A DNA stretch of 63,962 nt, counting the filler, from Chrysochromulina tobinii (taxonomy: Eukaryota), in the NCBI GenBank assembly GCA_001275005.1. It is 6 parts of 6 records of this genome, joined end to end, with 100 filler letters (N's around TTAATTAATTAA, not from the genome) between each part and the next. Parts side by side here need not be neighbours in the genome. Positions count along the whole stretch, not along the records: positions 1 to 20,083 come from JWZX01001112.1; 5 more parts are not named here. One strand, given 5' to 3'. This document shows, in pieces, positions 1 to 53,672 of this stretch (positions within the stretch are counted from its first letter, which is position 1; the number at the start of each line of letters is the position of its first letter). The notes below the pieces were generated by a model that saw only the letters and a program-made list of their open reading frames with translations, did not search any database and was not told the DNA's origin. The translations under genes were made by a program, and so were the position numbers.

Positions 1-3000
1 GGCGGCGGCGGCAGCGGCGGCGGCGGCGGCAGCAGACGATCCGGCGCCTCCGAGAGCCTCCCCAAAGTGCTCCGCAAGTACGAGGAGGGCAGCCGAGCCG
101 ACAGCGATGCGCGATCCAACGGAGACCCGAGATCCCATCACGATCAGGCGCAGCCGCATTTGTACCTGTACACGCGCCGCCGGCGCGGCCAAGTCCTCTT
201 GCTGCTCGTGCTGCTGCTCCGAGAGCGTGCGGGCAAGGCCATCGGGTATGACAGCGGCCCCGAGCGAGTCAGCGCCTCCGTTGTTGGTGGCGGCGGCAGG
301 TTGACTTTGTCTCGTGATAAGCGGCGGCGCCGCAGCGGTCATCGCGGCAAGCAGGTATTGGATCAAGGCGACAGGTGGAAGCATGCTCTCAAGCTGCCTC
401 AGCGTCTCCGCCTCACTCGGCACCCTAGCCATCAGGGACCCCTCGTGTGCCGGCACGACCGCTCCTGCGGACGAGCCCAGTCCCTCGAGCGCAAAACACG
501 CCGGGTCGCGCTGCGGCTCGTCGTTGGCCGTGGTGAGCAGGAGTGCAGCGACCGCAACATGGGCCTCGAAGACGAATTCGATGCGAGGCGTCTGCGAGGG
601 GAACCAACTGAGCTCCGCGCACCACTTGCGCCGATCGTCGTTTTGAAGGTTGTGGTATGATTCGGCGCCGTCGGCGTGCGCACGTGACTCGTTGATCGAG
701 AGCGTCGTGTACGGCAGCAGCTGTCCCCTCGCGTCTTGGAAGGCGACGCGCCCGAGCTGCACCGTGCCGCCGCTGTGCACCGACTTGATGATGAGCGCGT
801 ACCGCTTGAATGCGCGCGGCGCGCCCACATGCGTCACAGCGTGCCTTTGCTGGTACCAGCGATGCGGAAGCGCCGGTGCACGCCACTCTTGCAACGGCGT
901 CACCTTGTCCTCATCCGCGTGCTTGGACGACATTTTGGACCCTAGGGGCAAGAGCAGTCGAGTGGCGCACTGGCGGCGCCACGTGGCGCCTTCACTGGCT
1001 CCGTCGAGCTCTCGACCGAGCGGCGCAGTGGGCAGCGCTCGCAAAAAGTCAAGAAGTAGAGCGTACGCTGCGAGCCGGGCGTCCGGATCCGTTTCGAGCG
1101 CTGCGAGCGCCTTCGCCGCGCCCGGCGCATCCGCCGCCAAGCTGACGAGGGCCGCCTGCAGAGCGGCTAGCGGCGCAGGCGCCACTCGAGCGCAGCTAGA
1201 GGCGGTGCCGCCGAGCGCCACGCTCGGCGGGGCGCGTAGTGCGGGACGCTCCATGACGCGCACGCGGAAGCCGGTGATTTTACAGTTGATCCCGTGGCCG
1301 TCGAGGGACTCGAAGCGGATGCCTGTCACGTTGGCCAGCCCATCCTTTGGCGTGAGCAACTTACGCCACACGGCGGCGCTCGGCCGCTCCGAGATCTCCG
1401 TGGTGACGAGAGTCTCCCAGCTGGTGGTGCCCTCGCGCTGCACCTTGACCTTGATATTGCGGATAGAGTACGAGTCGTGGCCCTTGACGGCGACGGAGAA
1501 GTCAACGAGCTCGCCCTCCATGCCGTGCATCTCGACCCAATGCGGCTTGGTCTCTGAGGACGACTGCCAGTACGTCGACCCGTTCTTATCGAAGAGTTTG
1601 GGCAATTCCGACTGAGCAGACGAGCTCGTCACCCGTTTGGGGGTGACCTCGCGCACCTCACCCTCGGCCGGCTCGGCCGACGGCGGCGGCGCGGACGGCG
1701 GCGACGCGGCGGCGGCGGCAGGCGATATGGCGGCCTTGGTGGCTGCGGCCTGCCGGTAGTAGCCGAGGCCGCGCCGGCCGTTGAGGAACACCCATCCCTT
1801 CCACTCCCCCCGCATGCGCGTACTCGGCACGAACTCGACTGCGGGACCGAAGCTCACGCCATCCGCAGACCGCTCGCCCGAGTCGGAGTCCGCGGCCCAC
1901 GCCGCATGCGCCATCTGTGCGGTTTGGGCGAGGTGCGACCCAAGGAATCCGATGAGGCGGCCCACGAGCCAAGGCACCTTGTCGGGGGCGAGGGGCAAGC
2001 CGAGGCCGAGATCTTCGAGCGAGATCGAGGTGACCACCCGGCTGATCATCGCGCTCAGCGTGCGTGCCGGATCGGCGCTGCCTGTGCGCACGTACTCGGC
2101 TGTGGTCGCCTCGTCGAGTCCGAGCCTGGCGCCGTGCTCGCGCAGCACGGTCTCGGCTCCCTCGGGCGGCGGCGCGCCCTGCATGCACGCGGGCACTGGC
2201 GTCAACGACCATGCCGCCGCGCGCTGGCTCAGCCCCCATTCGAGTTGCATCGCTGCCTCGCGCGACACGAGCGCCACCGCAAAACATGGGGCTGCCTCTG
2301 CCTCAAACGGCACCGCCGAGACGGACGCGCCCTCTGCAGACGCGGCGGCATCGGGGGGCGCCCCAGCTCTCGCAGCGCAATACTCAACCCACCGCTGCAG
2401 ACGGCCATAGACACCCTTCTCCTCGCGCTGTTTGCGCGCCCACTCCAGGTAGTCCGGGTGCTGAGTCCGCACTTGCTCGAATGACAGCTCGGCGTACTTC
2501 CCGAAGCCCATCTTCTCGTCCATGCTGGCCGCCGCCTCGAGATGGGAAGCGCTCGGGAAGGCGCTCGTGTCCCCTGTAGTTGAGCCCCCGGTGGAAGCGC
2601 TCGAGCCCCCGGTGGAAGCGCTCGACGCGTCCGGGGCAGCGCATGGCAGCACGACCATCCCTGGCGGCTGACGCGGCGAGTCCCTTGCGAGAGCTCGGAA
2701 ACTGACACCCATCTGATTCGTGCGGCTGGTGCGATGCTCGTCGAGCCGGCGCACCTTCTGCATCTTCTGACTCCCTGGGTCGCTGTCCTCGTGGAACGGG
2801 CCGAGCATCAGGCCGTTGGGCTTGAGCAGTTCCACCCAGCGTGCCGAGTCGCTCATGCTCGCCGCAGCACCCACGTAGATGCGATCAAAGCGCGCCGACT
2901 CCGCGAGGTTGAGCTCAAAGGCGCTTGCATGCACGAACTGCACCTTGGCTAAGCCGATGGCCTCGCATTTGGCCCTTGCGCTCGAGACGGCGCGGTCGTC

Positions 3001-6000
3001 GACCTCGACCCCGACGTGATGAGCCTCGGGCCCGATGAGATGAGCGACCATGGCGGAGAAGTAGCCGCTGCCGCTCCCAATGTTGAGGAACGAGTGCCCG
3101 CGCTCGAGCTCCAGGTCGGCGAGAGCGCTGATGTAGATGCTGGGTGCCGAGAGGTGGTACACACCGTCAGGGGTGCGGAATGGCTCCCTCTCGTATGCCT
3201 TGTCGGCGAATTCTGCGGGGAGGAAGTGGGCACGGTCCACTGCACAGAATGCGGCCTCAACGGCCGAATCGCCTTTGAAGGCCCCCTCCGACGTGTAGGA
3301 TGCGCAGTACTGGACGTGCTTGTCGGACAGCGCAGGCGCTGGCCTCGCTGGCGCCACACCGCCACGCGCGACGCGCGCAGGGGCGCAGTCGGGGCACAGA
3401 TCGTATCTGCAACTCGCGCAGTGATAAAAGAGCGGACACGTGCGGTGGAGATCCTCCCGGCGGCAGCTGTCGCAGACGACGGACGTCTTGTACGTGGGTG
3501 GCAGCAGCACGCGCCCCTCCATGGCATGCTTCTTGGCGCAGCACACCACCGGCAGCGGGCCGAGGGAGCCGGAGAGATCGCACGTGATCGAGCCGAGCTC
3601 GGACACCCGCAGCACCGCTCGGCTGAGCAAGGCTCCGTTAGAAAGCCCTGACCTGTCCCTTACCAGTTGCTCCCGCAGCGAAGACGAGGCCAGCACGGCA
3701 AGCGTGTGTCCTTCTTGACGGACCGCGTCGAGCCACTCAACCACGTCGAAGTCCGCTGCACCCGCCGCACTCGGCAAGAGGAAGGCGGCACGGCGCGCAC
3801 CATTGGTGGCGATGCCGTCGGTGCCCTCCCCGTAAGCGATCGGCTGAGCGTCCGCACCGACGGGCACGAGAGCGAGGGGTGCCCCCAACGGACGAAGGGC
3901 GGCCGTGGCCGTCTTGCCAGCGGCTGCGGCAGCTGGCACAGGCTCGAGTGCCCGCACCCTCTTTTCGCTGTTCGTCGCAGGCAGGGCCTCGAGGCTGAGG
4001 GTCGAGTAGTCGCGAGTGGTCTCACTCATCTGGCGCTTGCTGGCGTCCCAGCTGCCCAGAGGCACCGTAGTGCACACACCGGACTGTGAAAAGTTCCAGC
4101 CCGACTCTTCTGGGCCAGTGCCTGCCTGGCAAATCTTCCAGTACGAGCCGTCATAGTAGATGGCACCGGTAGTGTATGGCGGTGGGCCCTCACGCGTGTA
4201 GCATGGCCCTCCATTGCGCAGTTGGCCTCGGACGAGATTGTACGTACCCGAACAATTTACCCCACTGTCGCCCGAAACCACACGGATGCGCGCCGGGGGG
4301 CCAAGAGGCTCGGGTGGCGGCGGCGGCTCGGGCGGAGGCGCGGGCGGCGGCTCGGTCGGCGGCGGCTCGCACAGCAGCGAGTCGGAGGGTGGCTGTGGGA
4401 AGTGCTTGAGCGCACAAGACGCGCACGCGTCAAAGTCGCAGCCACGGCAGTAGTAGGAGTGGCCTGCCCTAAAGGAGCCGCGGCACACGTCGCACGTGTG
4501 CCCCCCCCGGTTGTTCCAAGTGAGGACGTGCTGATGCTCGGGCACTTTGACCTCAGGGGGCCGCCAGCATAGCTTGAGGACCATCAAGCCCTCACCCGAC
4601 CAATCAAACCAGCCGCCGCCGCCAAAGACCATGTCCTCTTCCGCGCTCGGCGGCGCGGGCGGTGGCGCGCCGTTGATCTCGAGCACATAGGCCGCGCCCC
4701 CGCTCGCGATCAAGCTCTCGAGGCAAGCTGAGTCGATGTAAGGGCTACCTGCCAACCCAAGTGCATGCAGGGCCGGCTGCCGCACCGCTACGACCTGCAC
4801 CACCATAGCCTGTGCCCCGTGCCTCGTGGCGGCTTGCTCTTGCGCCCATCGCAACTCGAGCCCGCACGGGCTCCGGGGCTCGTGAGCTGGCCGGCGCAGC
4901 ACGAGCAACGACTCGCTCGGGCCCAGCACGGCGCTTCGGTGGCGCGCGATCGTCGCGCAGGGCAGGACGCCGTCCTTTGCCTTTTCCCACTCGCCCAGCG
5001 GCGGTCGCCCCTCGGCGCACTTGATGCGGTAGTAGTCGCCGGTGTCACGATCGAGATTGTCCTTGTCGGCCAGATACCAGTACTGGTTGCCGCTCGGCAG
5101 CGTGTACCGGATCATCCAGATCTGACCCTTCTCGTGCACATACTTGGCCGTGCCGCCGTACTCGCCTTCGCGACTGTAGACGCCGTTGGCGGGCGTGAAG
5201 CCAGCGCCACTCACCACGTACGCGTCCTGCATGGAGGCGGCGTGGTCGCCCTCGCCAGCCGCCCCAAGCAGGCGCCGTGTCGAGCTGTCCATGGGCGGCG
5301 CCGCGCCCGCATCGAGCACTGAGAGTGTCAGAGGCATGGGTGCGGGTGCAAGGCGGCGCGTGAGCGCGGCCGACGCGCGCCATAGGTCGCTACGGCGCAG
5401 CCAAAGCCCATCCTCGGCGCACGGCACCGGCGGCAGCGGCGCGGCGCACACGCCCAGAACGGCGCGTAGCAGCGACGGCGCGGCCGCGACGCTTGTGACC
5501 GGCACGGCGCCCGCGCTGACGAGGCTCTCGAGCGCGAGCACTCCAAGCGTCACGAGCGTGAGCGACGCATGCGACGTGGGCGACGAGTCCGCAGAATCCG
5601 CAGAGTCCGCAGAGGGGAGAAGGCCCGAGCGTGGCAGATGCTCCTCGACAAGGGCAGCGATCGCGCGTAGCAGCCTCTCCGCATCGGGCAGCTCGGGGCG
5701 GGGTAGGGCGAGCTGCAACGCCGAGCGCCCCGCCGAGCCAAGGAGCACCTGGACCTCGTCCGTGAGCGTGGGCAGCAGCCGAGCCACCTCAGCCGTGGAC
5801 GCATCCGCCGTGTCGAGCAGCATGAGCGTCGTCGCAGGCGCCGCGCCCGCCTCCACGCCACCCCCGCTCGCGCCATCGGCATGGCTCAGCGCCGTACCGA
5901 GCGCACCACGGCGCAGCGCGTCCTCGCGGGCGCCGAGGGCATGCAGCGCGCCGCTCGCGAGGCAGATGGCGCGCGCGCTCGGCCGAGGCACACTCGCCTC

Positions 6001-9000
6001 CCGCAGCGCCGCCTCGCACGCGAGCAGCGCGCCGCTCGGCTCGACGCGCCCATCACGTCGCGGTGCGTCGCGGAGGAGCTGGCGTACAAGGATGATCGTC
6101 TCCAAGTGCCGCTCGACCGGCGAGCTGTCGGGTGCGACCTCAGCGTACAGCGGCTCACACTCGATCGGGCTCTCGAAGCAGTGCCCGAGGGTAGGAGGCT
6201 TGGTGCCGGAGGACGCGCCCCCGGCGGCGATCGCTCCTCCGACTGGGAATGTGAGCAGCGGTGGCATCCCCTCGAGCCAAGAGCCCGCCGTCAGCCGCCG
6301 TATCGCCACGAGCTTCACCTTGTAACGGCCATAGTAACGGCCGACGCAGAAGTGGAACGCGGCGGCGCGGCTCACGGCTCGCGGCAGCTGCACAGCGGTG
6401 CCGATGGCACGGGACTCGGCGCCGGGGGATTGCTTCTTGCCCGCTTGGATGGTCATCTTGGCCGTATCGAGGGTCAGGGTGAGCGTGTCGCCCGGGCGCC
6501 ACGAGCTTTCGGGCGGGCCGCACGTGTCGGAGCCCTCGAGCTTGAACGCGGTGGGGCCACCTGCGGCTTTCCACCCCCACGAGTTGGCGCCAGAGCCGGG
6601 GTAAACTGCGAGCTCGGACTGGACATCACTCGGGTTCCGCTGAGCGGGCGGTGTGCGCTTTGTGACCCACTGCACACCCACGTACGCACCATCGGGGTCG
6701 AACGAGTCGGACGGCATGACCTTGAACTCGGCCTGCCACGTGCCACTCTTGAGAGCATGCCCAACCTCGCAGAGTCGCATCCCATCGTTCCCGAAGGTGA
6801 CCACCGTGTTGCCCTCGCTCAAATCGCCGCCACACCGTTGGTGCCACTTGGTGCAGAACTTGACGTTCTTGAGCTCGTGACCTCCCGCCGCTGCCCCGTC
6901 GCCCACCGGCGCGAACGTCCACGCCGCGAGCGAAGCGCAGGCGGAGGAGCCTGGCACGCTCGGCTCCTCGCTAATCTCGGCCATTGAGGCGCTGGCGGGT
7001 CTACCGGCTGCCAGCGCCTGCGCCAGTAGACCTTGTGGAGATGGCAGGCACACAATGCCAGTGACCTTGTACTCCTCGTGGCGAACGTTGCGATTCTGTG
7101 CGCTGTCCCACGTGTCCCCAATTGCGCCAGCATCGATGGGAAGTAGATTACCCACGTGGGCGCGGCCTTCCATGAACACTGGCGTCGCTGTCAGACCTGG
7201 GATCTTGAACGCAGCCATCTTTGTGTGCCCATCCTCGTGCACCGCAAATACATACGTTTCTGGCTCACGAGGATGAAGGAGACCAGGAACATTCGGAATG
7301 GTTTTGCCGCTCATGAATGTGCCGCTCATGGTACCAGTCACCATCATGCCGCTCGCCGGCGCGGGCGTCTCCGCCATCTTGGGCAGAGCAGACGGGCGCA
7401 ACGTCACGTACACGAGCTGTGCGGCACATGGCAGCCCGATGCGCACCGATCGGCCGCCCTCTTCGAGCTCTACAGGCGCGCTCTGCATAGCCTTGATGGC
7501 CTTCGGCTCGACGCCTTCGCCGAGCCACTTTTGGATCTCGGCGGAGTCGGTGTGCGAGAGCGGCAGCAGCCACGCCGCCATGCCCGAGGTGCACCCCGCG
7601 ATTGCCCCCGTTAGAGGCATGCGGATCCCTTGCAGCAGTGGCTGCTGCTTCCCCGCCGCGCCGGCGGCGGCGGGCCCGGGGGTGGCGGGCGCGGGGGTGG
7701 CGGCGGTGGGCTTGGGCTCCTTGGCCGGTAGGCGGATGAGGAGCGCTCGGACGATCGAGCACTCGAGTACCCGCGGTGGCGCACCCCACACGGCGCGCCG
7801 GGCCGCCGCCGCCGCGTCGCCCTTGCTTGGTGCTGAGGTGTAGCCGGTTGGCGACGGGGTGGGCGGCGGTGGGGCGGCCGGCCAGATTGTGAATCCAATC
7901 TGCGCGAGGAGCTCCGAGGTGACGAGCTCAGGCAGCACACCGCCCGAGGCAGCGGCTGCGCTCGGCAGCAACCGACCGAGAAGTCGCTGGCTCAGGAGTG
8001 CCACGTCATCGTCGGGTGCGCCCCGCTTAGCTAGGGCCAGCAGGGTGGGCACAGCGGCCTCGGCAAACGGCGCCGGCGCAGGCTCGTTTGGCGCGGGCGG
8101 CAGCAGCAGCACGAGCAGCTGCAGCAGCCGCACGCGCAACTGCGCACTCACCCCTTCGTCCGACAGCTCATGCAGCAGCACACGCACCAACCAGAGCGGC
8201 GCCGTGACGGGCGCATCCGAGCCCTCCCCGGCGTCAGCGGCCGCGGGCGCACCGAGCGCGTGGACCACCTGAGAGAGCACCCAGTACGTAGTGAGGCGCG
8301 CGTCGTCCGGCGCGTGGGACGCGAGCCCGTGGATGTGCTCGAGCAGGCGCGAGCGCTCAATCCACGCCACGTCATCGCGTCCGTACGGGAGGCGCAGCCC
8401 CTGCAGCACGAGCCGCGCCTCCGCCGACCCTATCGAGGGAGTCGTGAGCACCGCCAGCAGTGCGGCGTACAGCTCATGCATCGCGAGTCGGAAGGATCGA
8501 GAGAGCTCATGGCCGCACCCTAGCACACTCGTCGAGCACAGCTGCAGCGTGCCAATGCTTCGTGCGAGCTCGCTGAGCACTGGGAGGCGAAGGGAGCGGT
8601 GGCACGTTCGGAGCGCCCGTGCGAGCGCCTCGAGAGCAGGCACCGCCGCTCCTACGGCGTCGCGCCGACGCGCCATCTCGGCACGCAGCGGTTTCAAGCC
8701 CGCCGGCAACAGCGACACCTCACGCACGTCCGGCTCCAAAAAGTCGAGCACTTCCGACGTGAGCTGGCCGTACTTGTGATTGTCGAGCAGCGCGCCAAGC
8801 ACGTCGCCGCGCGAGCCGAGGCTCGAGCGCGAGCCACCCTTACTGCCCGCTCGGCGCAGCGCGTTGCGCCGCTGCTCAAACGACATGGCGAGCTGCTTGG
8901 CGCGCGCGAGCTGTGCGGTGGCCGCCAGACTGCCGCCCTTTATCTGGAGTTTCAAGCGCGCGCGCTCCCAGCTCGTGCCGCGCGTGAGCGGCGGGGCCAT

Positions 9001-12000
9001 CGAGCCGCTCGACGTCCTCGCGAGGTCGAGTGCCGCGGTGCTGCCGCCGCTCAGCTCGTCACTGCTCATGGCGACGCCCATGACGACCTCGCCCGTAGAT
9101 GCCATCCGCTTGACCGGCAGCGGCGGCTCACTCCTCGTGCGCTTCGGCAGCAGCGATGTCATCTCCGGCGGACGCTCGTCCGCTTCGCCCTCGTCCCCCG
9201 TGCCTCCGCCCCCTCCTCGCGCCGGCACCAGCATCACCGCGACAGCGCTGTCGTCGATGCTCACGGAACCGTGGCGGCGCTGAGTCGCGGGCATCACCCC
9301 CTTGAGAAGAAAGAGAGCCCGCTCCAAGATGGGTGCCGCCACGCGCGCCTCCTCCGCCACGATGAACTTCATGTGGCGAGCCTCGACCACCAGATCGTCC
9401 AGGCCAACGTCGTCCCGGGCGTCGTCCGCGTCTGACACCGCGCTCTCGCCGCCGACGCTCACACGCTCGGCCACGCGCGCCGCTCGCTCGGCCTCCTCGC
9501 CGGCCGTGCTGTGAATGTTCACACCCTCGCCGCCCGTGCTCGACGCCGCCGCCGGCAGGTCAGCCTCGGAGGAGTCCTCGGCGGTTGCACCTCCACCCCT
9601 CCGGAGCGCGGCGCCAACGCGCCCCGCCACCCATCGGCGCACTTGACGCGCGGCCTGCCAGAGCACCACCAGCGATGTGGGCGGGCGCGCTGCATCGAGC
9701 GCCGCCGCCGCCGCCGCCGCCTCCGCCACGAGGTGGTGGTGGCGCAGCAGCACACACACGACGATGCGCTCGAGGCGCGCGCCCGCGCCTCCCTCGCCCG
9801 CCGAGCACTGCACATTCTTCGAGGCGTCGCGCTCAAACTTGGCGAGCATCGCCTCGTGCAGCCGCGCCGCGCCGCTCAGAGGCGCCGTACCGGGCACGCT
9901 CACGTGCGCGGCGAGGTGCTCTAAAAAGGCGGTCGCCTCGTTGACCATGTGCGCGGGCGCGGTCGCGGAGCGCTTGGGAACGAGCGGCACATCGGCGCCG
10001 CCGTCGGCGTTGGATCCGGTGCCGCTACCCGAGCCCGCAACGCCAGCACCAGTGCGCACCAGCCCCCCCCGCAGCAGCTGCCCTTGCAGCGACTCGACCA
10101 AGGGCCCCTCCTCCGGGCCAGCGCCCACGGCGCTCACGGCGGCGAGGCACACACGGGCGAGCACTTGGGCGGCGAGGGTCGCGAGCTTATGCAACTCGTG
10201 CATGCCCGCGGGAGAGGTCAGCCGCCCTTGAACCCACAGCACGGGCGCCACGACGAGAGGCAACTTGGCGCCGCCACCGCCCCCGCCGCCACCGCCGCTG
10301 GCGGCCTCGGTCTTGACGGACCGCCTGGCCTTCACCTTGCCCTTGCCAGCCTTCCCACTCTTGCTAGCCTCGGACGACGACGACGACGGGGTAGCGGCAA
10401 AGCCCGCGAACGGATTTGGCGCATCGATTGGAAGCACGCCATGCCCCAAGAGAGAGCCGCCGGCAGAGGCCGGCGCGGCCGACGGCGCGGCCGACGGCGT
10501 GGGCGGCATCGTACGCACCCACGTGAGACGCACGGCGGCAGCGCGCACGACGACGCGCCGTACCGGGCGTTCGACACGCACGTACGGCGCTCGCTCCGCC
10601 TCGGCCATCGCCGACCACTCGGCCTCACTCACCGACACATCGGGTGCGCCCGTCGTGCCCTGTGTTACCGCCGGCGCGAGCGAGGCGTAGCGCACGAGGG
10701 AGGCGGGCGCACCGACAGCCAGTACGTCGTCACACCAGAGTTCCCACAGCTCGTTCGCCCCCTCCTCGTCGCCGTCGAGTGCCGACAGCGCCGACAGCGG
10801 CACGCCGGGGCGGAGCACCTCAACACGCAGCGACGCACTCGCCACGAGATTCGCGTTCGGACCGCCGCCGGTGGGCAAAGGGCTGCCGCCCGCGGCGGGC
10901 GCGGCGGGCGCGGGCGTGGCAGCGCGGTAGCAGTAGGATGGAACGTGGCGGTTTGAGAACGCTTCGCAGAGCCGGCAGCACGATGGGCATGCCGGCCCGT
11001 TGTCCGGCCCGCAACGGCCATCGGAGCCCGGGATGGCTCTCGTCCCCTTGTGCTTTCCACAGTAGAAGGTCCCCTGACAGCCGATTGAAGTCCCAAAGGC
11101 GACGACGTCTCCCTCGTCGTTGACGAGACTCGCCTGGAAGCGTAAGCACGAGGCGCACGCAGGGCCGCCGGTGGGACCACATCGGCCGTCCGAGCCCGGG
11201 ATGGCGTCCGAGCCGAGGAAGCGGCCGCAGTAGAATTTCAGTCGGCCGTCGTGACGCGTGCCCACATACTCATCATTGCCGCCAAGGCCCACCTGCGCGC
11301 CCTCATCATTCACCGGAGCCGCAGGCGGTGCAGGCGGCGCGAGCGGTGCGGGCGGCGTGGGCTGCGCGGCGGCTGGGCGGCCAAATGTGATCGGGGCACT
11401 TCCAAAGGTGAAGGTCGGCGGAGATCCACCACCAGCAGGCGAGGCGGCGGCAGGGGCAGCAGCGGCACTTCCAAAGGTAAAGGCGGACAGCGGCGCTTGC
11501 GGCGGAGGGGCGGCAGCGGGCAGCGGCGGACCGGCTCTGCCAAATGAGAAGACACCAGGTGCCGGCGGAGATGCACCACCAAATGAGAAAGGGCTGCCGC
11601 CGCCAGTGCTGGGCGAGCCAAAGGGCGAGGCGGCGGCAGGGGCAGCAGCGGCACTTCCAAAGGTGAAGGCGGGCAGCGGCGCTTGCGGCGGAGGGCCAAA
11701 GCTAAAGCCGCCAGGGGCTGCTGACGGTGCGGCGGGGGCGAACACCAAAGGGGCGCCGCCAAAGGTGGGCGCTGCTGGAGCAGCGGCGGAGAAGGGGGCG
11801 GCTGCTGGCGCCGGCGCTCCGAAGCTGAACCTGCCGGCGGGTGCGGGCGTGGCGGTGGCGCCAATGGCAGAGGCGACGCCAAAGGGCGTGGCACTGAAGA
11901 TGGGTGCGGGCGCAGCGGTGCCGCCGGAACGCGGGCGCTGCGGCGCGGGGTTGGCGCCAGAGCTGAAGCTGCCGCCGACTGGTCGCGAGGGAGAACTGAA

Positions 12001-32282: not shown

Positions 32283-33989
32283 TCACGACCAGCGGCGCCG
32301 GTGACTCCTTCATGGGATGTACGCGGCGAAGACTGGACCATGCGCGGTTGGGTCTGAGTCGTAGTAGTAGCAGTAACAGACTGAAGCGTCGAGTGCCTCG
32401 CGTGGGCTCCTCTTGCATCTGCAGCCGAAGGCTCACCCCGAACCTCGGACCCCAAACCAGTACGTTCATCACTTCGCCATCCTCACTTGGCACCTCGGCT
32501 TCGGCCACCCCGTTCAACTCGGCCTCGGCAAATCTCAGCAGTGCCGCCGCTACTTGGCTCCAACTTGAGGCCTCTTCCGCTGCCAAAATGGACAACATTG
32601 TGGCGGATATTATCAATTTGGTCGACAACTTGCGCAAGGTTTCCGCCTCCGACTCTCGAGCCACTTGCTTCCTCTGCTGATTTCGATGCTCGAGTTGCTG
32701 CGGCTGTCGCTGTGGCTCTTCGTGCTCATGGTGTCTCGCTGCCTCCAACGGGCTCCACTTCCCCTGACCGTGGTTCCCCTTTCGATGAGCCCCCTCCTTC
32801 ACCCCCGCGTGGGTTCGATTTGAAGGGCCTGACTCTCGAGGTTGCCGTTCGTGAGTGCCTGGCTGAAAACTTTATGATTCAACCCGTTTGGTATGGTTGC
32901 GGTCCCCCACCGGGCCGTGTGGACGGTTCGACCAACTCGCCCGCCGCATGGTCGACTCATCTGCACCAAGTCTGTGTCCAATTACTGAAGGGCCGTGAAT
33001 TCAACACGCACTCCCAGACCTTCTCTAACCGTCTCTAAATTCGAGGCTGACGTCAAACGTGTCCTTACTGATCCGGATTCTTACCGCCTCTGTCGTCCAA
33101 GCCTTCACGAGGCTCTCGCCCGGTTGTTTCTGACCAAGGGCGTGAACGACTCCGCCACAAAGAAGGAAGCTACTCAGTATGTCATGCAACAACTCGAATC
33201 TACCCTTCCGAAATCTCCGCCGAAAGGGTGCCTGCATTACTCACTGGAGGAGGTCCAACGGTTTCTCTTGCATTCCATGTCGCACCGCGACGACACTGAT
33301 GACGATGCTGATGCGTATCTCCTGCAATTTCTCCACATGCTCGACAACTTTTACCTTTCGCAAACAGTCTCAGACCCGTACAACCGCTCTGCGAGGAACG
33401 TAGGAAAAAAGCTGTCCAGCGGAAGGTTCTGGGCGACAATGAGGGCCGCAAATTGGTGGAATGGGGAGTGGTGCACCAGAGGGATACCCGCCTCGCCGAG
33501 CAGGACCTCCACATGCGACGTGAGAGCACGTTCAGCCCACTCGCTGATGAATGGCAACGTGCAGGATGCGACTAGCTCGTCGTCGCTCATGCTGGTCGCT
33601 TCAACAACGAACAGAGAAGTGATCAGGTCGTTGACAAGTAAGTACAAGATTGAACAGCCGGATGAGTGTTGGTATGTTGTGGAGTCGACCAGTCAAATAT
33701 CGAATCGCGTCAGACTGTACTTTGGTGACGGGCGGAGTCGGAATGGACCCAACCTTGTGAGTGGCATGATGGCAAAGCTTGGCATCAGCGACGTGCTGTT
33801 GCTTGTCTTTAGGAGAGCGCTACCGGCGAAGGTTTCGAATGCAGTCTTAGCAGTGTCCCAAAGTTCTCTAGAAAGTTCCTCTGCTTGATCCACTGAGGGG
33901 TCGGAAGATGACCGCTTCACGTAACGCAAGGCATTCCTGATCACGAACACCATATCGTGTCTCTTCGGGAATGAAACGGCGAGACCAAC

Positions 33990-35153
33990 ACGCAAGAGGG
34001 CGGTAGGGTCGTTTTCGTCGGTACGCTGACTAAGGACAGCACCTATACCACAGCTCGAAGCAGCGTCAACGTCGATGTAGAAGGGTTTGCTGGAGTCCGG
34101 ACGTGCAAGTGCGACGACGTTAGCGAGGGCGTGCTGAGTATACGCAAAAGAGGCTTTGAACGCGAGTGAACTCATGATCTTCTCGACATCAGCATTCTTT
34201 TGTTTGAGCTTGTCGAATTGTTCGAGTGCAGGGCCGAGATTCGGGATGAACTTTCGATAAAACCCGAGCATGCCGCTATAACGATGGGCGGCTGCTGCAT
34301 CGAAGCCAAGGTCTTCACACTTAATACTCAGGATAGGAGCTGTCTTGTTTTCCAGTGGTCGAGTACCATGTTGGCCGACTTTGAATCCCAGATAAGGGAC
34401 CTCAGTGTAACCAATGTAGCACTTGTCGCAGCGAACAGCAAAGCCAGCCTCGATGAAGCGTTCAAACACACGTTGGACGTCGCGCATGTGCTCCTCGTAC
34501 GTACCACAAGTAGGGATAATGACGTCGTCCACGTACGCGATGGCGATGTGGGGCGGGAGACCACGCAAGGTTGCGTCCACAATGCGCATGAAGGTACCTG
34601 GTGACGACGTGAGACCCATAGGCATACGAGCAAACTGGAACTGACCATACTTAGTGGTGAAGGCTGTCTTGTGTTTGCTATCATCATCGACCTCGATCTG
34701 ATGGAAACCCTGAAGAAGATCGAGAGTAGTGAACCAGTTGGCCTTGCCGAGTGCAGCGAGGTTCCCTTCAAGATTAGGGAGCGGATACGTATCCTTGTCA
34801 GTGTACTTGTTGAGATCGCGGAAATCCAGGACAACACGAAAAGTGCCGTCGGGCTTACGGATGAGCTGAGGCGCGGAACTGAAGCGACTGCGAGCCGGTT
34901 CAATAATCCGTTCCTTGGCCAACTTGTCCAGTGTCTTCTTCAGTGCCGCATCCTCTTCAGTACTCTGATTACGCGGTTGTCGATTCGGCGGAGGAGCTTC
35001 ACCCGAGTCGATTTGACTCGTAGGGATAACACACTTATATCCATGAGCATACCCAAGCTTCTCCTGAAACAGGCGCCTCACCTTGCTGATCATTGACTCA
35101 GTAGCCTTGACATCAGCCGCCGAGAGCGCCGGGTTGATATTCACTTTCTTCAT
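33990..35153 (-). pseudogene. Ty3/gypsy reverse transcriptase plus truncated RNase H
   Basis: RVVLDFRDLNK, YPLP, LDLLQGFHQI, KTAF, MPMGL, AYVDD, YLGF, GFYRKFIP, then RNase H start FYIDVDAASSCGIGAVLSQ, which breaks off. No integrase. Confidence 0.88.
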
Positions 35154-36532
35154 AATCTCTTCGGTGGTGCATCATAGCCGTCAACGCGACCGATCAGTCC
35201 ATTGAGCGCCACGTTTTCGAGACCGTGGAGCGTAGCAGCCCCAGATCGAGAGACCGTTAATGAGGTTTTGAGACACTCGTCATATGCATTAACGATATCG
35301 ACAGTCTTGAGTTCGCCCTCGCATAGGACGGCTGAGATGAAAGCCTGATTATCGACGTTGGAAGATGTGAGATGCAGGCGATTGCGGAGGTCGTGAAGGC
35401 CAGGCGTATCGAAAAGTCGGGCGCCCCTCCGCTTCTCCTCCCGTCGGAATTCCCGCTCCAACGCCTCACACGTCGCCTCGTCGAACTCATCGTCCGAGGG
35501 TGCGCCATCGGGTGCAAGGAGAGGTGAGGGCGAGCGTAGGGGCGTCGCAGTTGGATGGGGAGCACGATCGGATATGGCGGCATAGAAGCGATGCCAGTCT
35601 CGTGTGAAGGTTGGAAAGCGCGGAGAATCAGAGACGAGAGATGAACACAAAGTCGGAGGACAGCCGGTATAAGGCGTCAAAGACCAGCAGACTACAGAAG
35701 CGGGCTTCGACACTCGCGGGCGCCACTGGAGCGGGTCCACATTCCTCCGAAGTTTGAAGAAATAGTACTCGAGTTCAGGCTCCGTCAGTGAAGATGTGTT
35801 CGGGACATGAGGGAGAAGTCGGGTACCGTATTCACGTGCAGGAGTCGCGTAGCCTGTGAAGTACTTGACATGTTCTACTTCGAACCATACGCACGGACTA
35901 GAAGAAGAGAAACGGCAGCAGAGAAGCATACCGGGCCGAACCCATGAATAAGCGCCTGTATTGAAGCGTGATTCAATAGTCTTGGACAGAGAGAGCACGT
36001 CGTGGAAGACATCGAGTGCGAACCATAACTGAATCCAAGGGCGGAGAGATGTCGAGCGAGGCAACATGGCAGGCTGGACAACTAACGTGGTCACGTCGGA
36101 CACTGATACGCCAAGCATGTGGGGTACAAAGCAAGACGGTTGCAGATAGCTCTGTAAGACCCCACTCGCAACAGCATAGACACTTGCAGGGGTGAGACAT
36201 TGGTCTTCGGCGAGAAGGCTGAGTGCAGACACTGGAAGGGTATCAAGCGGTACGCGCCAGAGACACGCGGTGACCTCGAGATGCCCGCCACCCGAAGCAA
36301 AGGAAACGTCGTACACGATAACCTGGGGGACGTCACGCTGAAGCGTGGAGGTGATGGCGAAAAGGAATGAGCCATCGCTGCAGTTAGCGTCCGTTCCAAT
36401 GTGTCGGGCACAGGCTTCCGCGTGTGGGAGGGAGTAAGGCGTGAACGGCTCTCCCATTTTAGGGCGCTGGACGTGCCGAATGCACGCGAAGGGTCGAACA
36501 GTAGCAACGGTATCGGCGATGCACATGAACAT
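35150..36532 (-). pseudogene. Retrotransposon polyprotein segment upstream of the RT, with an ASCH/PUA-like domain (about 35750-36040)
   Basis: FHDVLSLSKTIESRF...VRPGMLL...VWFEVEHVKYF...YGTRLLP resembles the ASCH KxxExR pattern. Out of frame with the RT. Confidence 0.55.
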
Positions 36533-37443
36533 GCCATTCGTATGCGGGACGACGACTCCTGGTGTTCGCCCTGTACGTCATCCGCCCGCCGTGTGTGTCG
36601 TCAGTCAGGAGGCTGTGGATGCCGTTGGCCAAGATGCACCACGACTCGTCTGCTGGACTGGTAAGGACATCTCTTTCCCATCTACTGTGGCGCTATGAGT
36701 TCAAAATTACCCTCACTGGCCGTCGTGTCAAAGCAGCGTGCAATTCAGCACGCATGGCGTCTGCTGTTGCTGCCACTGCATCGGGTGGTCTTCTTCACCT
36801 TGCTTCGTTTCATACGTCTGCGGATCATTCAACAGGTTACGTATCTCTCCATCCTCGCAAGAGCTTCACCCCTCGAAGAGGCCGATGATGGCATACGAGA
36901 GTCGAGACCGTAAAGCGGGACAGATTGGTTCGCAAAATCACGACCAGCGGCGCCGGTGACACCTCCAGGGGATGTACGCGGTGAAGGCTGGACCATGTGT
37001 GGTTGGGTCTGAGTCGTAGTAGTAGTAGTAACAGACTGAAGCGTCGAGTGCCTCGCCAGATATCGCCATGCAGAATCCAACTTACGCACCTCGCCCTGCG
37101 ATTTGGAAATTGAAAGACAAAATACAGATTCCAAATTCCGAGACAGCAGTTTCTGTTTACGCTCCTGTACTCTGACTTCATCGAAAATACATTCTTAGGA
37201 AGCGGGTGGAACACATTTTTCGAATTCCTGCATTTGTACACACATTCCCGGCGGCAGTTTCGATTTGCGACAAAATGGAGGCTGCCGAGGCGGACACGCA
37301 CCAGCACGGCACGCAGCCTCACAACGCGAGTCACAATCCATCCGAGGATCATTGGTCTATCGTTCTCAAAAAGCTCGGTGCGTATTCCGATGCGAGTGCT
37401 GATGCTGCATCTGATGCACCCGTGTGCGTAAACATCCATCCGC

Positions 37444-39873
37444 ATGACCGTATCCTCCGCACAACGTCACATTCCTCTTGCAGCGCCTGCTGGCTACCAC
37501 AAAGCTCCACAGTGGCAGCAGGAGCTTATCAGCAAGGTTGTCAAGCAGATGAATCGCCGGCAAAAGTATGGCACGCCGGGAGGCGGCATGTCCAAGGAGC
37601 AGCTTCAGCGCACCATCGACCTGTCGGCGCTTGGCGTCTCCCCAGAGGTGGCAGAGACCTTCCGACTCGAAGAGCAACGCGTGGCGAAAGCGATGCGTGA
37701 ACTGCCCGGCCCAGGCGGTACCGGAGCCCCTGGTACCAAGGATGGAGCCTCTTCCGTCGCCGCCGACTCGCTTTCTGTGGTTGAGAAGCAACTTTCGGAC
37801 AGGTCGAACCAGGTGCACTATTACATTCGCGCCATCCAAATGGAGTCACTGCTCGAGCAAGACCTGGAGGCTGACCTGAAAGCGATGCGAGACGAGGTAG
37901 GTTCCGCTGTCAAGGACGAGAAATTCGGCCAGTCCAAGGCAGCAAGCGTTCGGCTCCGCCTTGAGCGTCAGTTGGGCATCATCAAGAAGCGCTGCGACGC
38001 GGTGCGTATCTGGGATCGCGCAACCGTTCACATGGCCGCCAATGCTTGCCCCTTCCTTCCTTTCCTCAAATCGACTGCCTCGTGTTGTATCGGCGGCCGT
38101 ACGCAGCTTACTGTCAAGGCTTCGGAGATCGGTTCCGACAACGGCAACGTGCGCCTTAACATCGACGACCTGCGCAAGGAGAAGATGTCTCACCGCGAGC
38201 AGCTCATGCGTATGAAGGCCAAAGCGGAGAAGATGGACACGGACATCGCCTTCCTCACACACCAAGCGCACGCGGCTCTCGACCAGCGCGAGAAAGTTCG
38301 CGGCAAGTTCCTCATGGCGCAACGCGACATGATGCAGGAACGCGAGCAGAAACTCGCGGTGATTGCCGAGCTCGTCACCCGTGCCAACGCCCTCGACGAC
38401 GACTGGGCAGAACGGCAGACGCAGATCGCCGACACCGAGGAGCAGCGTCGTCGGCGATCGTACGGGTCAGGCCGCGAACGGCGCGAGATGTACGAGTCGG
38501 CGGAGGTGCGCTTTGGCTTCCTCACCGCTCAGTCACGCGGCTGGGAATCGGAGTTTGAGCGCCTTCAGGCCTTTACAGGCATGGAAACCAAGTTCGATCC
38601 GCGCGAGAAGGAGGGCAAGCAGGTAGTCGAAGAGATCACCTCGAGGTGCGCCGCACGCACTCTGCCGACGTTAACAGACGGTCTGAAAACTGTGCGCTGA
38701 CCGTGGCTGCTTTTCTTGGCCAGGTATGCCGAGAAGGAGCGAGCAAACACGTCACTGCTGCGCTACCTGAACGAACAGCAGGCTGAGATCTCAGCGCTCG
38801 CCGAGCAGCACAAGGAGATGCAGGGGCGGCGCGAGGAGCTGCAAACGCTGCTCGGGCTGGTGCCGTCCGGCTACGGTGGCGGGCTCACGCCCGAGTCACT
38901 GTTGGCAGCGGCGTCGGAGGAGGACGCCCGCTGTGACCGCGTCGAAGCGCGGCTCGAGGGCGTGGCCATCCACGTGCATGCGGCATCCAAAACACTCTTT
39001 CGCGAAGGGCATCACCCCGCTGCGAGCGGGCTCGGGAGCTACTCCGAGACCAAGTGCACTATCAAGACCCTCGATCGGTGGCTCGCAGCGCTCGAGAATA
39101 AGCTCTTCGACGTGTATGCGATTTGTCAAGCGCTGTGCATGCCTGATGGCGAGGGGAACGCGGCCATGGAGCGCCCGCCGCTTGTCCTGAGCGATTGGTG
39201 CCAACGCGATAGGGTGCAGAAGGTGCCGAAGGTTACTGTGCCCGAGATCCACGACGCGCTGTGCCTGCAGGCTGCACAGCAGCGCCGCGGCGGCGAACTC
39301 GAAGACGACGAGGAGGAGATAGGCGATGATGCGAAAAAGGACCACTCGCCTTTCCAGCGCACCAAGGTCAACAAGGCGCAGGAGCGCCAGCGCATTATTG
39401 AGTGGGCGCGAAAGCGGCAACCACAGGCGCAGCCTCAAGTGCGTCAGGCCGTGGAGAGCGCTGCGGCGAGTGCAGGAGTGGGTACGGCGCCTGTGCGCAC
39501 GAGCGCCTCGGCCCCCACGTTGCGCCGGCTGCCTGCGGCGGAAAGCAACGGCGCCTCCAACGTGGGTGTGGGCGGGCTGTCAGTGGCAAATGGCGGCACG
39601 CTGCCGGTCATCGGCGAGGGCAAGGCGGAGCGGGCTGCGGCTTTCACCGCGCAGCACGGCTCGGCCCCACCCCTGCCTGCTGGCCCTGCGGGATTGAAGA
39701 GCAGCGGGAGCAGCGGCTGCGCGCAGCGGCTGCGCGCATCAGCGAGCGCATCGATGCCGGCGCCCACGTCGACCGTGCCAAAAGATCTGGGCACTGTCAT
39801 CTACCTGCTCGGCACGCAGAGCAACTCGATGAACGCGCGTCGCTTCCTCGATGGTCGCTCCGGCCAAAGCTGA
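37444..39873 (+). CDS. Coiled-coil protein, ODAD1/CCDC114/CCDC63 (outer dynein arm docking complex)-like
   Basis: NGNVRLNIDDLRKEK, FERLQAFTG and EKERANTSLLRYLNEQQAEISAL match the ODA-DC2 family pattern. GT-AG introns at 38002-38106 and 38646-38723 join the two ORFs in frame. Confidence 0.72.
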
Positions 39874-42420: not shown

Positions 42421-45400
42421 TTACACCAACCGTTGCAGCAGCCAAAACTGGACGGGCTCGCGACAGTACGGGCAAATCTTCATCTTGGCCGTGCAGCGCT
42501 CGCACGCGAGCTGATGGCCACACGGCACCGCAAGGTGCGACTTGGGCCCCACCATGCACACGATGCACGTGGTCTGGCCACCGATGGACGATTCGGGCGC
42601 CTCGTCGAGCACACGGCCGGTGATGTTGCCCACGTCGGCGAGCGTCAGATGCCTCTCCGCTGGCATCAAACCTGCAGCCAGTGCTGGGGCTGTTGGTGGC
42701 GCAGGGGCAGGAGGCGGCGGATGCACGGTAGTCGGGCCGCGCCCACCGCGCCCTCCACGCCCCCCTCGCCCCCCTCGCCCGCCGCGGCCAGCGTTCTCTG
42801 CCACGGCCAGAGCCGTCGCGCGCTCCACCTCAGCCCTCTCCGCCTCCTCCCTCTCCGCCTCCTCCCTCTCCGCCTCCGTCGCCGCAGCCGCCTCAGCCGC
42901 TGTAGCCGCGGCCGCCTCCGCTGCGGCTGCCACTGCTGCTGCGGTCGCCTCCACGTCCTCCTCAGCCTCAACGGCCTCCGATGCTGGTGCTGGTGCCGCC
43001 ATCGCCAATTCCTCTGCCGCAGGCTCCTCGATCTTCTCTTCTGCCACCAACTCCGCTTCCGTCGGCTCTGACTGCGACGCCGACAAGCCGATGCCCGCCT
43101 CGCCTGCGGCTGTGGTCGCCGCTCTACCCTTTTTCGCCTTCTTCTTCGCCTTCTTGGACGCCTTCGCGGCCTCCGCTTTGGCTCTCGCTTCCTCTTCAGC
43201 GATCAGGCGTGCCATCATCGCGTCAGCGCGGGCCTGTTCGTCCTCGCGTGAGAGGCTGCCTCGAGCGCCGCCAGCCACGACGGACGTGACACCTGCACTG
43301 GACGCTGCTGCCGCGCATGATGAGGCGATGTGCTGAGTCGCAGCTATGAATCCAAGTTGGCAGAGCGCCCAGGCATCGCCCTGGTCCGCAGCGAGCTTGA
43401 ACAGCTCTGCCGCCCGCTTATCATCTTGGGCCACACCGCGTCCCTCACGGTGCATGTCTCCAAGTGAGCACTGCGCCGGAGCATAGCCCTGGTCCGCAGC
43501 GAGCTGGAACAGCGCCGCAGCACGCTTATCATCTTGGGCCACACCGAGACCCTCACGGTGCATGCCTCCAAGTGCGCACTGCGCTGAGGCATCGCCCTGG
43601 TCCGCAGCGAGCTTGAACAGCGCCGCAGCACGCTTATCATCTTGGGCCACTCCGAGTCCCTCATGGTGCATGACTCCAAGTTCGTGCTGCGCTGCGGCAT
43701 CACCCTGGTCCGCAGCGAGCTGGAACAGCTCTGCGGCCCGCTTATCATCTTGGGCCACACCGCATCCGTCACGGTGCATGGCTCCAAGTGCGCCCTGCGC
43801 TGAGGCATTGCCCTGGTCCGCAGCGAGCTTGAACAGCGCCGCAGCCCGCTTGTCATCTTGGGCCACACCGCGTCCGTCACGGTGCATGAGTCCAAGTGAG
43901 CACTGCGCTGCGGCATAGCCCTGGTCCGCAGCGAGCTTGAACAGCGCCGCAGCCCGCTTGTCATCTTGGGCCACACCGCGTCCCTCATAGTGCATCATTC
44001 CAAGATAGCCCTGCGCCGCGGCATCGCCCTTGTCCGCAGCGAGCTGGAACAGCGCCACAGCCCGCTTATCATCTTGGGCCACACCGCGTCCGTCACGGTG
44101 CATGAGTCCAAGTGCGTACTGCGCCACGGCATCGCCCTTGTCCGCAGCGAGCTTGAACAGCGCCGCAGCCCGCTTATCATCTTGGGCCACACCGCGTCCG
44201 ACAAGGTACATGGCTCCAAGTCCGCACTGCGCCGCGGCATCGCCCTGATCCACAGCGAGACTGAACAGCTTCGCAGCCCTCTCCGCCTCCGCCCTCTCCG
44301 CCTCCACCCTCTCCGCCTCCTCCCTCTCAGCCTCTGCCCTCTCTGCCTGTGCCCTCTCTGCCTCCGCTCCTTGCCTAATTACCTCAGCCTCCGCCTGAGC
44401 CCTGGCTGCCCGCGTGGCCTCCGCCTTGGCGGCCTTGAGCGCCGCTACCCGTACCGCCGCCTTCTCGGCCTCCTTTGTCGCCTGCTCAGCCGCTGCGGCC
44501 GCGGTCGCCGCGGCCATCTCCGCGGCGGCCATCTCCGCGGCGGCCGCCTCCGCTACGGCCGCCGCTGCCGCCACTGTCGCCTCCACGACCTTCTCAGCCT
44601 CAATGACTTCCGATGCTGGCGCCGCTTCTGTGGATGCTGAGCCTGCGGCAGGAGGCGACTGTGTGACCTCTTGCAGCGACAGCCTCGACAGGCTGGCTTG
44701 CATCTCCATCTCCGCCGCGTGCTTGCGACGCAGCTTCTGGCTCGCCCTAGACCTCTTGCAGCGACTGTGTGACCTCTCCTGCTTGCGCTTCTTGTGCAAG
44801 CGCTCGTGCATCGCCATCGCCTCCGCCAAAACACCCTCGCTTGCGAGTGCTTGGTGTTCCTCGATTGCACCAATCAAGCCCTCGTACTGCGCAGCCGCCA
44901 TGGCCACACGCAGCGCAACGTCGGCGGCGGCAGAAGGAGCGGGACCCATGACGCCCTCGTCGCCAGCCGCCGCCAACACCTCGTTGTCCGCCTCAGCGAG
45001 GCCACTCGCGGCCGCTGATGCACTCGCTACCGGCGCTCTTGCCTCGCTCGCCCCTGCCTGCTCGGCCTCGATTTTCATGCTCGCTATCTTTTTCTGCGGC
45101 TGCTGCTTGTGTGCGCCCTCCGCCTCCTCCTCAGCCAGCAAAGCCGCAGCGGCAAGCTCGGCTGCCTGCTCAGACTGGGCGCGCGCCGCCTCAGCCTCGG
45201 CCTTGACGCGCCGCTCCTTTTCGCGAGCCTCCACCTCGAGAGCCTGCTGAACGCGCCGTCGCTCCTCACGCTCGCGTCGATTCACCTCGCGCGCCTGAGC
45301 TTGGCGCCGGATCTCGCGCACTTTCTTGATGCCCTCGACTGCCGACACGGCTTCCTCTTGCACTCGAACCTGCTCCTCGCTGAACTCGACGTGCTGAGTG

Positions 45401-48705: not shown

Positions 48706-48958
48706 GGCGGGAGACGCCCTCGCCTTGGCCTTGCGCGAGCCCACCTTGGGCTTCGTGGTGGCGCCTTAGGCTCGTGCACGTCCGCGCGCGCGCACGGGCT
48801 TCCCGCTTGGACGTCTTCGACTACATAATGATGACGCGCAATCAACCTTAAACGCATGAAGGGGCGGGACAATTACGAAAGCCCCTGGTCTTGTGTGTGT
48901 ACCACACGTGCAACTCATGTTGTCGGTTCACTGTGAATACGTCCAGGAACGGAAATCA

Positions 48959-52309: not shown

Positions 52310-53672
52310 GGTGTTCACACGTGCACATTGCGCGAAAGTGTGCAAGTCACGTCAAGTCAACTAACAACTATGGACTTCTTGATAATTCCAAGTAGCCCAC
52401 CCCAGTAAGTAACGCGCACCTCTGGGGAGGTTCAAGACCCCTAGCAAGTAACGACTTTATTCAAAAAGCCGTTCACGTTCTCACGTTATCCGATAAAATG
52501 CCCACTCGGCAAGACGCATCATCACAGGTCCCGTGGAGACACAGCGTGGAGGGCGTAGACTACTTTTCAAAAAGCCGAGTACTTGACTTGACAAAAAGCC
52601 GAACTTGAGAGACCAAAGTCCAGACCGATCGCCTCTATCTGTACAGTCAGTGTGCTCAGTCAGTTCAGTTGAGAATAAAGACGATCGGGAACCCCCCAAT
52701 GGCAATGCCCAACGAAGGCTCGCCGCTCAAGCGCTTGCACATCACGCTCGCCGAGCTGAAGCTGAAGCCCATCGCCAACCTTGTGCCCAAAGTAGTAGCC
52801 GACGGCCTTCGGCCGCCGCCGCCGCGCCTGCAGGCCACCATGGCAGTGGGCTCGTTGAGAAAGGCCGCGGGGGTGCTGTCGCCCGCGCTGTCCGCGTATG
52901 CGCAGCGCTCGTCATCCGGGTTGCACCACATGACGGGGGTGTCAGTACTGTCAGCAGACGCGCCCCGTTGGCGCGCCCCCCGAAGGGAACGCAAAGAAGC
53001 CATTCGACGCCGCCGTCGCGTGACGACGACGGTGTCGAGTAACGACGCTGCCGTGGCGACCGGCAGCTTGCCCGCCGCCTGATTGCTGCCTGCCGCCATC
53101 TGCGCGGTCGTGCCAAGCATGGAAAATGGCGCGTGACCCAGCATGGTGACGACGCGCCCGACACGAAGACAGCGGCCCCCCAGCGGACAGAGGCCCCCAG
53201 CAGATGAGCAGCTCGCTCGTCGAGCACATCAAGCGCCTGCGGCGGGCGCAGGAACATAGGAGTCAGCCCGAGCGCAGATATTCGCAGTGCGCGTCATGTT
53301 TTCGGTGTGCCACTGCGCGTCCGACTGACAGTGAACACCGCACACAGATCGAAGCGCCAGCTCGACTGAGCCGGCCGCGTGCCAGGCGAGAAGATCTGCC
53401 GGTGACGAACGCGCGCGCTCTGGTTCCAGAGGAGCAGGGCCACCATGGGCAGTTTTCTAAGAAGTTCTCGCACGACGGTCGGGGGGGCTCGATCGTCCCT
53501 GAGGAGGTTTCGCATTACCCCGGCTACGATTTTCGGGTGGGCCCCTGGTGCTCCCGCGATGTCGGCCCGATTCGGCCCGGGTGTCGCGACGGGTGCCCGC
53601 ACGGGCGCGACGTTCCGTAACTATTAATGCTTATATTGGTCACACTTTCCCCTATCTGGGATGATGAAAAGC

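Follow-up and report, generated by a model that had tools for sequence, protein, structure and literature searches.

A giant stop-free exon of Chrysochromulina tobinii is predicted to encode a HECT-type ubiquitin ligase with exchangeable domain slots

What is encoded by a reading frame that runs uninterrupted through an entire 20-kb contig of Chrysochromulina tobinii, and does it stand for one protein or several? The window analyzed here, the whole stretch of 63,962 nucleotides from assembly GCA_001275005.1, is made up of six eukaryotic contig pieces with N spacers, and the frame lies on contig 1 (positions 1-20083). The first-pass annotation had described it as a hidden single-exon frame of about 6,670 codons for a giant mosaic, E3-ligase-like protein, with the catalytic domain expected beyond position 1.

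Translation of the reverse complement of contig 1 yielded no in-frame stop over the 6,694 codons of the minus frame 20082..1, which bears out the stop-free frame that had been claimed. Each of the remaining five frames carries 57-172 stops. Among 200 base shuffles, stop-free runs reached 604 codons at most (mean 334), and the GC3 of the frame stays at 0.68-0.85 along its whole length. The ORFs listed on this contig are, as the first-pass annotation held, shadows of the giant frame.

The frame does not appear to be coding from its very first base (Table 1). Its first 77 bases consist of a 9-base repeat plus a C-rich tract that runs up to a CAG (78% C/T over 60 bases of the pyrimidine-rich part), and the coding part then opens with half a zinc finger at 20005. 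A splice acceptor is likely at 20006, with the exon beginning at 20005. Since the first Met of the frame appears only at aa 274, upstream 5' exons are probably missing from contig 1. The single-exon description thus holds over the part read, and the gene as a whole is probably not single-exon, since 20006-20083 resembles the 3' end of an intron.

Table 1. Features of the giant frame on contig 1, listed in the direction of the minus strand (window positions; aa numbers are those of the frame)
Feature	Position	Strand	Remarks
Likely intron 3' end	20006..20083	-	9-base tandem repeat, pyrimidine-rich tract, CAG acceptor; contig break
Window part of giant coding exon	1..20005	-	frame aa 27-6694; on into L001 beyond position 43
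ZZ/C1-type finger, second half	19933..20005	-	Pfam ZZ 0.084; first half probably in upstream exon
Beta domain common to Ctob_000132 N-terminus	18553..19080	-	local score 68 vs shuffle maximum 47 (500 shuffles)
H2B-H2A doublet	14605..15561	-	aa 1508-1826; 3.8e-9 to single-chain H2B-H2A
DOC/APC10 domain 1 (DOC1)	13255..13719	-	aa 2156-2276; Pfam ANAPC10 9e-8; APC10 in PDB 0.002
FxFG tract	11401..11829	-	7 F[ST]FG in aa 2752-2891; 72-base internal copy at 97%
Two tandem Cys-rich motifs, unnamed	10963..11310	-	probably zinc-binding
Conserved scaffold block	7783..10245	-	30-45% identity in distant homologs
SPRY domain	6283..6855	-	aa ~4410-4600; also in P0007, P0019, Ctob_000132
Beta module A, unnamed	4933..5220	-	~95 aa; distant kin of module B and a P0030 module
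C1-type zinc finger	4411..4539	-	aa 5182-5224; Pfam C1_2 3e-6
Module B, unnamed	3988..4290	-	~100 aa; second copy in extension
460-aa cassette	2302..3684	-	finger, PCMTD1-like domain, ExoX-like motif; absent from P0029 and P0030
ZZ/C1 finger of cassette	3370-3495	-	Pfam
PCMTD1-like domain	2638-3270	-	PCMT 3.8e-27
ExoX-like C-terminal motif of cassette	2434-2505	-	
DOC/discoidin domain 2 (DOC2)	1243..1653	-	aa 6144-6283; Pfam F5/8 type C 4.5e-5
Unnamed beta domain	463..885	-	aa 6400-6540; conserved in P0029; resemblance to discoidin by eye only
Poly-Ala run start	1..42	-	window contig breaks here; L001 reads through; HECT beyond

When metagenome contigs were scanned using the final 580 aa as query, 1 locus, L001, emerged from 221 pattern matches. 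If placed in + orientation, L001 begins at window position 20028, in the same 9-base repeat. It shows 0 mismatches to the window over an 11.8-kb overlap, passes through the poly-Ala run and adds 1,666 open codons before the stop at L001:16739-16741. The giant frame thereby totals 8,346 codons, of which 8,320 follow the acceptor (24,964 coding bases; ~860 kDa), so that at least 8,320 aa would be encoded in what appears to be a single exon. Linker rich in Ala, Gly and Pro makes up much of the protein.

The frame ends in a HECT domain (Pfam PF00632, 1e-52) that covers profile positions 27-305 of 306 up to the stop, and the complete domain includes a predicted catalytic Cys at aa 8314, where HTC aligns with the STC of HECTD3. 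The catalytic domain anticipated beyond position 1 is thus present in L001. Among solved HECT structures, HECTD3 is the best match by sequence (110.6 vs 95.6 bits) and with a profile (135.9 vs 97.5 bits), leading the next solved HECT by 15 and 38 bits, respectively. The giant protein is therefore a predicted HECT E3 ubiquitin ligase, and its membership of class I (HERC/HECTD3-like) is likely, given HECTD3 as best solved match together with a SPRY and APC10-type domains. Of the kinships first suggested (HERC1/2, CUL7/9 and HECTD3), the HECT type stands and the cullin type falls, as no cullin domain was found by Pfam in the giant protein. Within the 8,346-codon frame, the 5' exons lying outside it, there was no Pfam match to an RCC1-like domain, and none to Cyt-b5, MIB-HERC2, Cul7 or WD40. 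Downstream of the stop, L001 carries a PX domain and ankyrin repeats (17155-18069 and 18513-19817, +).

Relatives of the protein were sought from both ends. A query of aa 3280-4080, in the scaffold, gave 24 matches among 1.84 billion representatives, and a search with the HECT end among longer proteins gave 7, three of them close (72, 53 and 45%). Together they tile most of the frame: Ctob_000132 (KOO20864.1, C. tobinii) is colinear over aa ~340-4696 at 31-44% identity in blast blocks, P0007 covers aa 3433-4902 and P0029, the closest homolog with a HECT domain 80% identical, covers aa 5261-8345; no single homolog spans aa 4902-5261. The scaffold query found no homolog among proteins of 3,681-11,715 aa and nothing usable in the Atlas. 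A pre-HECT query found none among proteins of 605-1,925 aa, a search that missed P0031, which is in that range and has shared blocks. The scaffold may resemble HERC2. P0027 and P0030 are each recorded on a contig of 14,439 bases and are probably consecutive pieces of one homologous gene (aa 3908-4856 and ~5385-8345).

The colinearity of P0029 extends to either side of the poly-Ala run, which gives the join between the window and L001 independent backing. It is very improbable that the mosaic is an assembly chimera that unites separate genes at repeats, even though repeats that break other assemblies occupy both contig ends as well as several internal sites: the frame is kept over every repeat, the second contig agrees base for base (the samples may be related), and homologs preserve the order of blocks across the poly-Ala join and along aa 340-4696. 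The frame and shuffle controls, the identity with L001 and the homolog tiling jointly support the continuity of the frame.

For transcript evidence, three RNA-library runs and one DNA run were mapped on window positions 1-20000; the contig 1 stretch is present in 19 of 22 listed runs, 6 of which are RNA. All four mapped runs covered 30 of 30 bins, with the proviso that RNA libraries may carry DNA. No splice-type ends were seen in the RNA runs among the 15 listed of 28 joints. A 1-base deletion occurs in a single RNA contig and in none of the other three runs. A loose end at 3989 in two of the three RNA runs corresponds exactly to L001:12340-12369, showing that RNA-library contigs include part of the L001 extension. 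RNA contig depth is 25-33 near 2000-4700 and 3-9 near 16700-20000 (37-48 for long DNA contigs); this fall would fit 3' bias on one long mRNA, but it was left out of account, since the depth of contigs is an unreliable measure and GC climbs in parallel. One continuous mRNA for the giant frame is likely on these data. Further loose ends common to two or three RNA runs occur at 3342, 12072 and 18099, each a shared stretch followed by divergence; the one at 3342 falls where the finger borders on the PCMT-fold domain, and its continuation is in neither the window nor L001. These ends could reflect a nearly identical module in some other gene, or brief overlaps that arose by chance.

A real frame might nevertheless give several shorter products through internal promoters, in-frame introns, early polyadenylation or cleavage, in which case there would be no 860-kDa chain. 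We consider this improbable. The 8,320 codons contain no stop, against one per 40-120 codons in the other frames; RNA covers the bins without a gap, and homologs overlap most junctions. The longest RNA piece is indeed only 3,188 bases, with RNA contigs ending at repeats, and the database gene calls are all fragments (76-2,696 aa), but the latter are explained by short contigs.

The single long protein remains the preferred reading, and its domain content could be largely upheld from the first-pass list: two DOC domains, one SPRY, C1/ZZ fingers, an H2B-H2A doublet, FxFG repeats and a methyltransferase fold were recovered. Two further SPRYs fared less well, one in the L001 extension (aa ~7400) being weak (0.008) and the other (aa ~335-510, the beta domain at 18553..19080) being SPRY-like by eye only and unsupported by Pfam, a small HMM and hhalign. 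The proposed separate discoidin domain at aa 6400-6540 was named by no tool, with no family match in the Pfam, DOC and hhalign comparisons.

The SPRY domain at aa ~4410-4600 is supported by a fold comparison and by profile methods. Its top Foldseek match is the SPRY of HERC1 (1.7e-5, lectins next) from a low-confidence model (37.4 overall, usable around the SPRY only), and the small HMM gave 8e-4 against 0.76 for the best reversed control. Across 55 hhalign pairs, SPRY2 alone was linked to Pfam-called SPRYs (prob 45, E 2e-4). Pfam itself finds no SPRY anywhere in the giant protein and one at 5.6e-15 in the homolog P0029. DOC2 is paralogous to DOC1 (blastp 3.5e-12) and weakly matches the DOC domains of CUL9, CUL7 and HECTD3 (0.012-0.13). 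One of the three C1/ZZ fingers is firm and the other two are weak (0.03-0.08). Module B recurs at aa ~6784-6880 with 86% protein identity and 90% DNA identity over 375 bases and is, judged by these values, a recent internal duplication.

The histone doublet retains all helices in order and is interrupted by a Pro-rich insert as well as an acidic/charged repeat. Its single-sequence fold reached a pLDDT of 52.5 with no Foldseek match under 0.001; the fold model being poor, the assignment rests on the sequence match. Neither for the doublet nor for the pre-HECT part did a weak search find a viral relative, leaving a giant-virus source unsupported. The F[ST]FG motif occurs 0 times elsewhere in the 6,694 aa, and the tract has no Pfam FG match. 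Weak nucleoporin FG matches in P0007 (1296-1361) and P0030 (141-182) differ in position from this tract, and such tracts may have arisen repeatedly. For the twin Cys-rich motifs, Pfam gave no family match and the Atlas nothing usable.

The methyltransferase-fold domain is closer to human PCMTD1 than to the repair methyltransferase PCMT1 (78.7 vs 46.3 bits), and PCMTD1 is its best solved match (4.7e-21). The domain retains the SAM-binding motif and has HLSAP, as does PCMTD1, where PCMT1 has TISAP. According to passages of PMC12590147, a Thr-to-His change closes the channel in PCMTD1, which binds isoaspartyl proteins in a SAM-dependent manner with no methylation; the His of HLSAP would correspond to this channel-blocking residue. 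A repair methyltransferase identity was therefore rejected in favor of a PCMTD1-like domain. The match stops at PCMTD1 residue 240 and is followed by a low-complexity linker with no BC-box/Cul-box for CUL5; the BC-box of PCMTD1 starts at about that residue (PMC12590147, in part). We infer that the domain may act as a PCMTD1-type isoaspartate reader in cis with the HECT.

Comparison of the homologs shows a common colinear scaffold with different domains, as predicted from sequence, at the same slots. The slot at aa 5467-5927, which holds the cassette here, measures ~13 aa in P0029 as against 18 aa in P0030, so the methyltransferase cassette is missing from both of the two homologs spanning this slot. 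The present protein has little at aa ~6556; there P0029 carries a SPRY plus more (270 aa) and P0030 a weak MIB-SH3 and a beta module; P0031 contains SCA7, FHA and a C1 finger in the same half. After aa 6758 the module B copy is found here and unrelated sequence in P0029. The DOC1 slot holds a laminin G domain in Ctob_000132, whose gene model has neither histone doublet nor FxFG tract (introns could conceal parts). Slot swapping, the internal duplication and the PCMTD1 character are additions to what the first-pass annotation had described.

Such variability could also arise if the locus encoded one giant HECT ligase in which most inserts were neutral passengers, its long loops simply tolerating domain copies that are gained and lost with no effect on the choice of substrate. 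Even P0029, whose HECT is 80% identical, does carry different inserts, one module was duplicated recently, low-complexity runs split the histone doublet, and much of the chain is Ala/Gly/Pro-rich linker. We regard this as unlikely, though less so than the other two alternatives: the inserts are mostly whole domains of a binding type known from other class I HECTs, both the SAM-binding and the PCMTD1-like motif are retained in the PCMT domain, and DOC2, module B and the SPRY are conserved at 31-58% in homologs.

The explanation that we consider probable is that the giant exon encodes a HECT ligase in which a conserved scaffold carries loop-borne inserts that would serve as sensors of substrate or location. 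In HECT ligases the N-lobe binds the E2 and the C-lobe Cys transfers ubiquitin (PMC9547173, in part). An E2 would pass ubiquitin to the HECT Cys and from there on to a bound substrate, with the scaffold positioning the inserted binding domains around the HECT. The DOC, SPRY and finger domains may bind proteins; the PCMTD1-like domain may bind isoaspartyl-damaged proteins with SAM as cofactor, wired to the HECT rather than to a cullin; the histone doublet could bind histone chaperones or chromatin factors; and the FxFG tract could bind nuclear transport receptors. A bolder and only tentative reading is that the haptophyte giant HECT family forms a plug-in platform, its slots reloaded by copy-in fast enough to differ among close relatives, and includes a single-chain isoaspartate-sensing ligase that has converged on CRL5-PCMTD1.

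Among known systems, the class I HECTs (HERC1, HERC2, HECTD3 and KIAA0614/HECTD4; PMC3673628, in part) are alike in their HECT, SPRY, DOC/APC10 and ZZ/C1 domains and in large size, whereas the part read here lacks matches to RCC1-like, Cyt-b5, MIB-HERC2 and WD40 domains. The predicted length of at least 8,320 aa exceeds that of HERC1 (4,861), HERC2 (4,834) and HECTD4 (3,996) as listed in part of PMC9547173, and the largest human E3 is given as RNF213, at 591 kDa, in a passage of PMC7311170. Size is nevertheless not unique: Plasmodium yoelii PyHEUL, a protist HECT with a 22,500-bp predicted ORF, precedes it, in a passage that names a HECT domain only (PMC5548792). HECTD3 combines APC10 and HECT in ~860 aa; the giant protein is ten times longer and resembles it only in the HECT and a weak DOC match. 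CUL7/CUL9 share a weakly similar DOC2, but catalysis here would be of the HECT type, with no cullin. Human PCMTD1, a CRL5 substrate receptor whose complex has yet to be shown to ubiquitylate according to a passage of PMC12590147, is alike in fold, HLSAP and E3 link; the domain here lacks the BC-box/SOCS part and is fused to a HECT in one chain. Ctob_000132 (1,954 aa, hypothetical) shares the scaffold and SPRY, and its model ends before any HECT.

In the parts of the 2013 survey used here (PMC3673628), SPRY is exclusive to class I HECTs, APC10 is limited to HERC2 and HECTD3, and APC10-containing HECTs are confined to animals and choanoflagellates; the two DOC domains described here lie outside that range. 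The same survey includes haptophyte members in the KIAA0614 family, for which none of the present searches brought up a reference sequence, and expects further unusual HECTs; 'histone', 'PCMT' and 'methyltransferase' are absent from its main text, and the parts used mention no FxFG tract. A literature search, outside which most subscription papers fell, found no prior description of this giant ligase family and no HECT with a histone doublet, and no PCMTD-HECT fusion appeared among the matches listed. A lineage-specific family is plausible; among 20 homolog clusters, one had a member assigned to a named organism, C. tobinii.

In the other pieces of the window, a scan of 19 frames found coding sequence for a kinase, a protein like ODAD1, a clathrin/VPS repeat protein and a retroelement, which points to a GC-rich and probably flagellated eukaryotic host. 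A 676-codon stop-free frame at 50324-52351 (-) combines CutC (3e-58) and glucokinase (5e-56) in a possible fusion, and 42424-48765 (-), on another contig, spans 2,114 codons with ankyrin repeats, 8 Sel1 repeats and a C-terminal RING, and is thus E3-like. Reverse transcriptase and RNase H pieces of the retroelement lie at 33696-36577 (-). One stop divides two in-frame stretches at 37432-39870 (+) that weakly match the ODAD1 coiled coil; they probably belong to a dynein docking gene with an intron.

Every database homolog of the giant protein is a piece, which indicates that gene callers fragment such genes and leave the family largely invisible. The 2013 survey rated haptophyte HECTs, those of Emiliania being numerous, as domain-poor (PMC3673628, in part). 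The exchangeable slots offer a natural experiment in how E3 ligases acquire substrates. If the pairing of a PCMTD1-type domain with a HECT is true, it would provide a one-chain system in which to test isoaspartate as a degron, a question left open in passages of PMC12590147.
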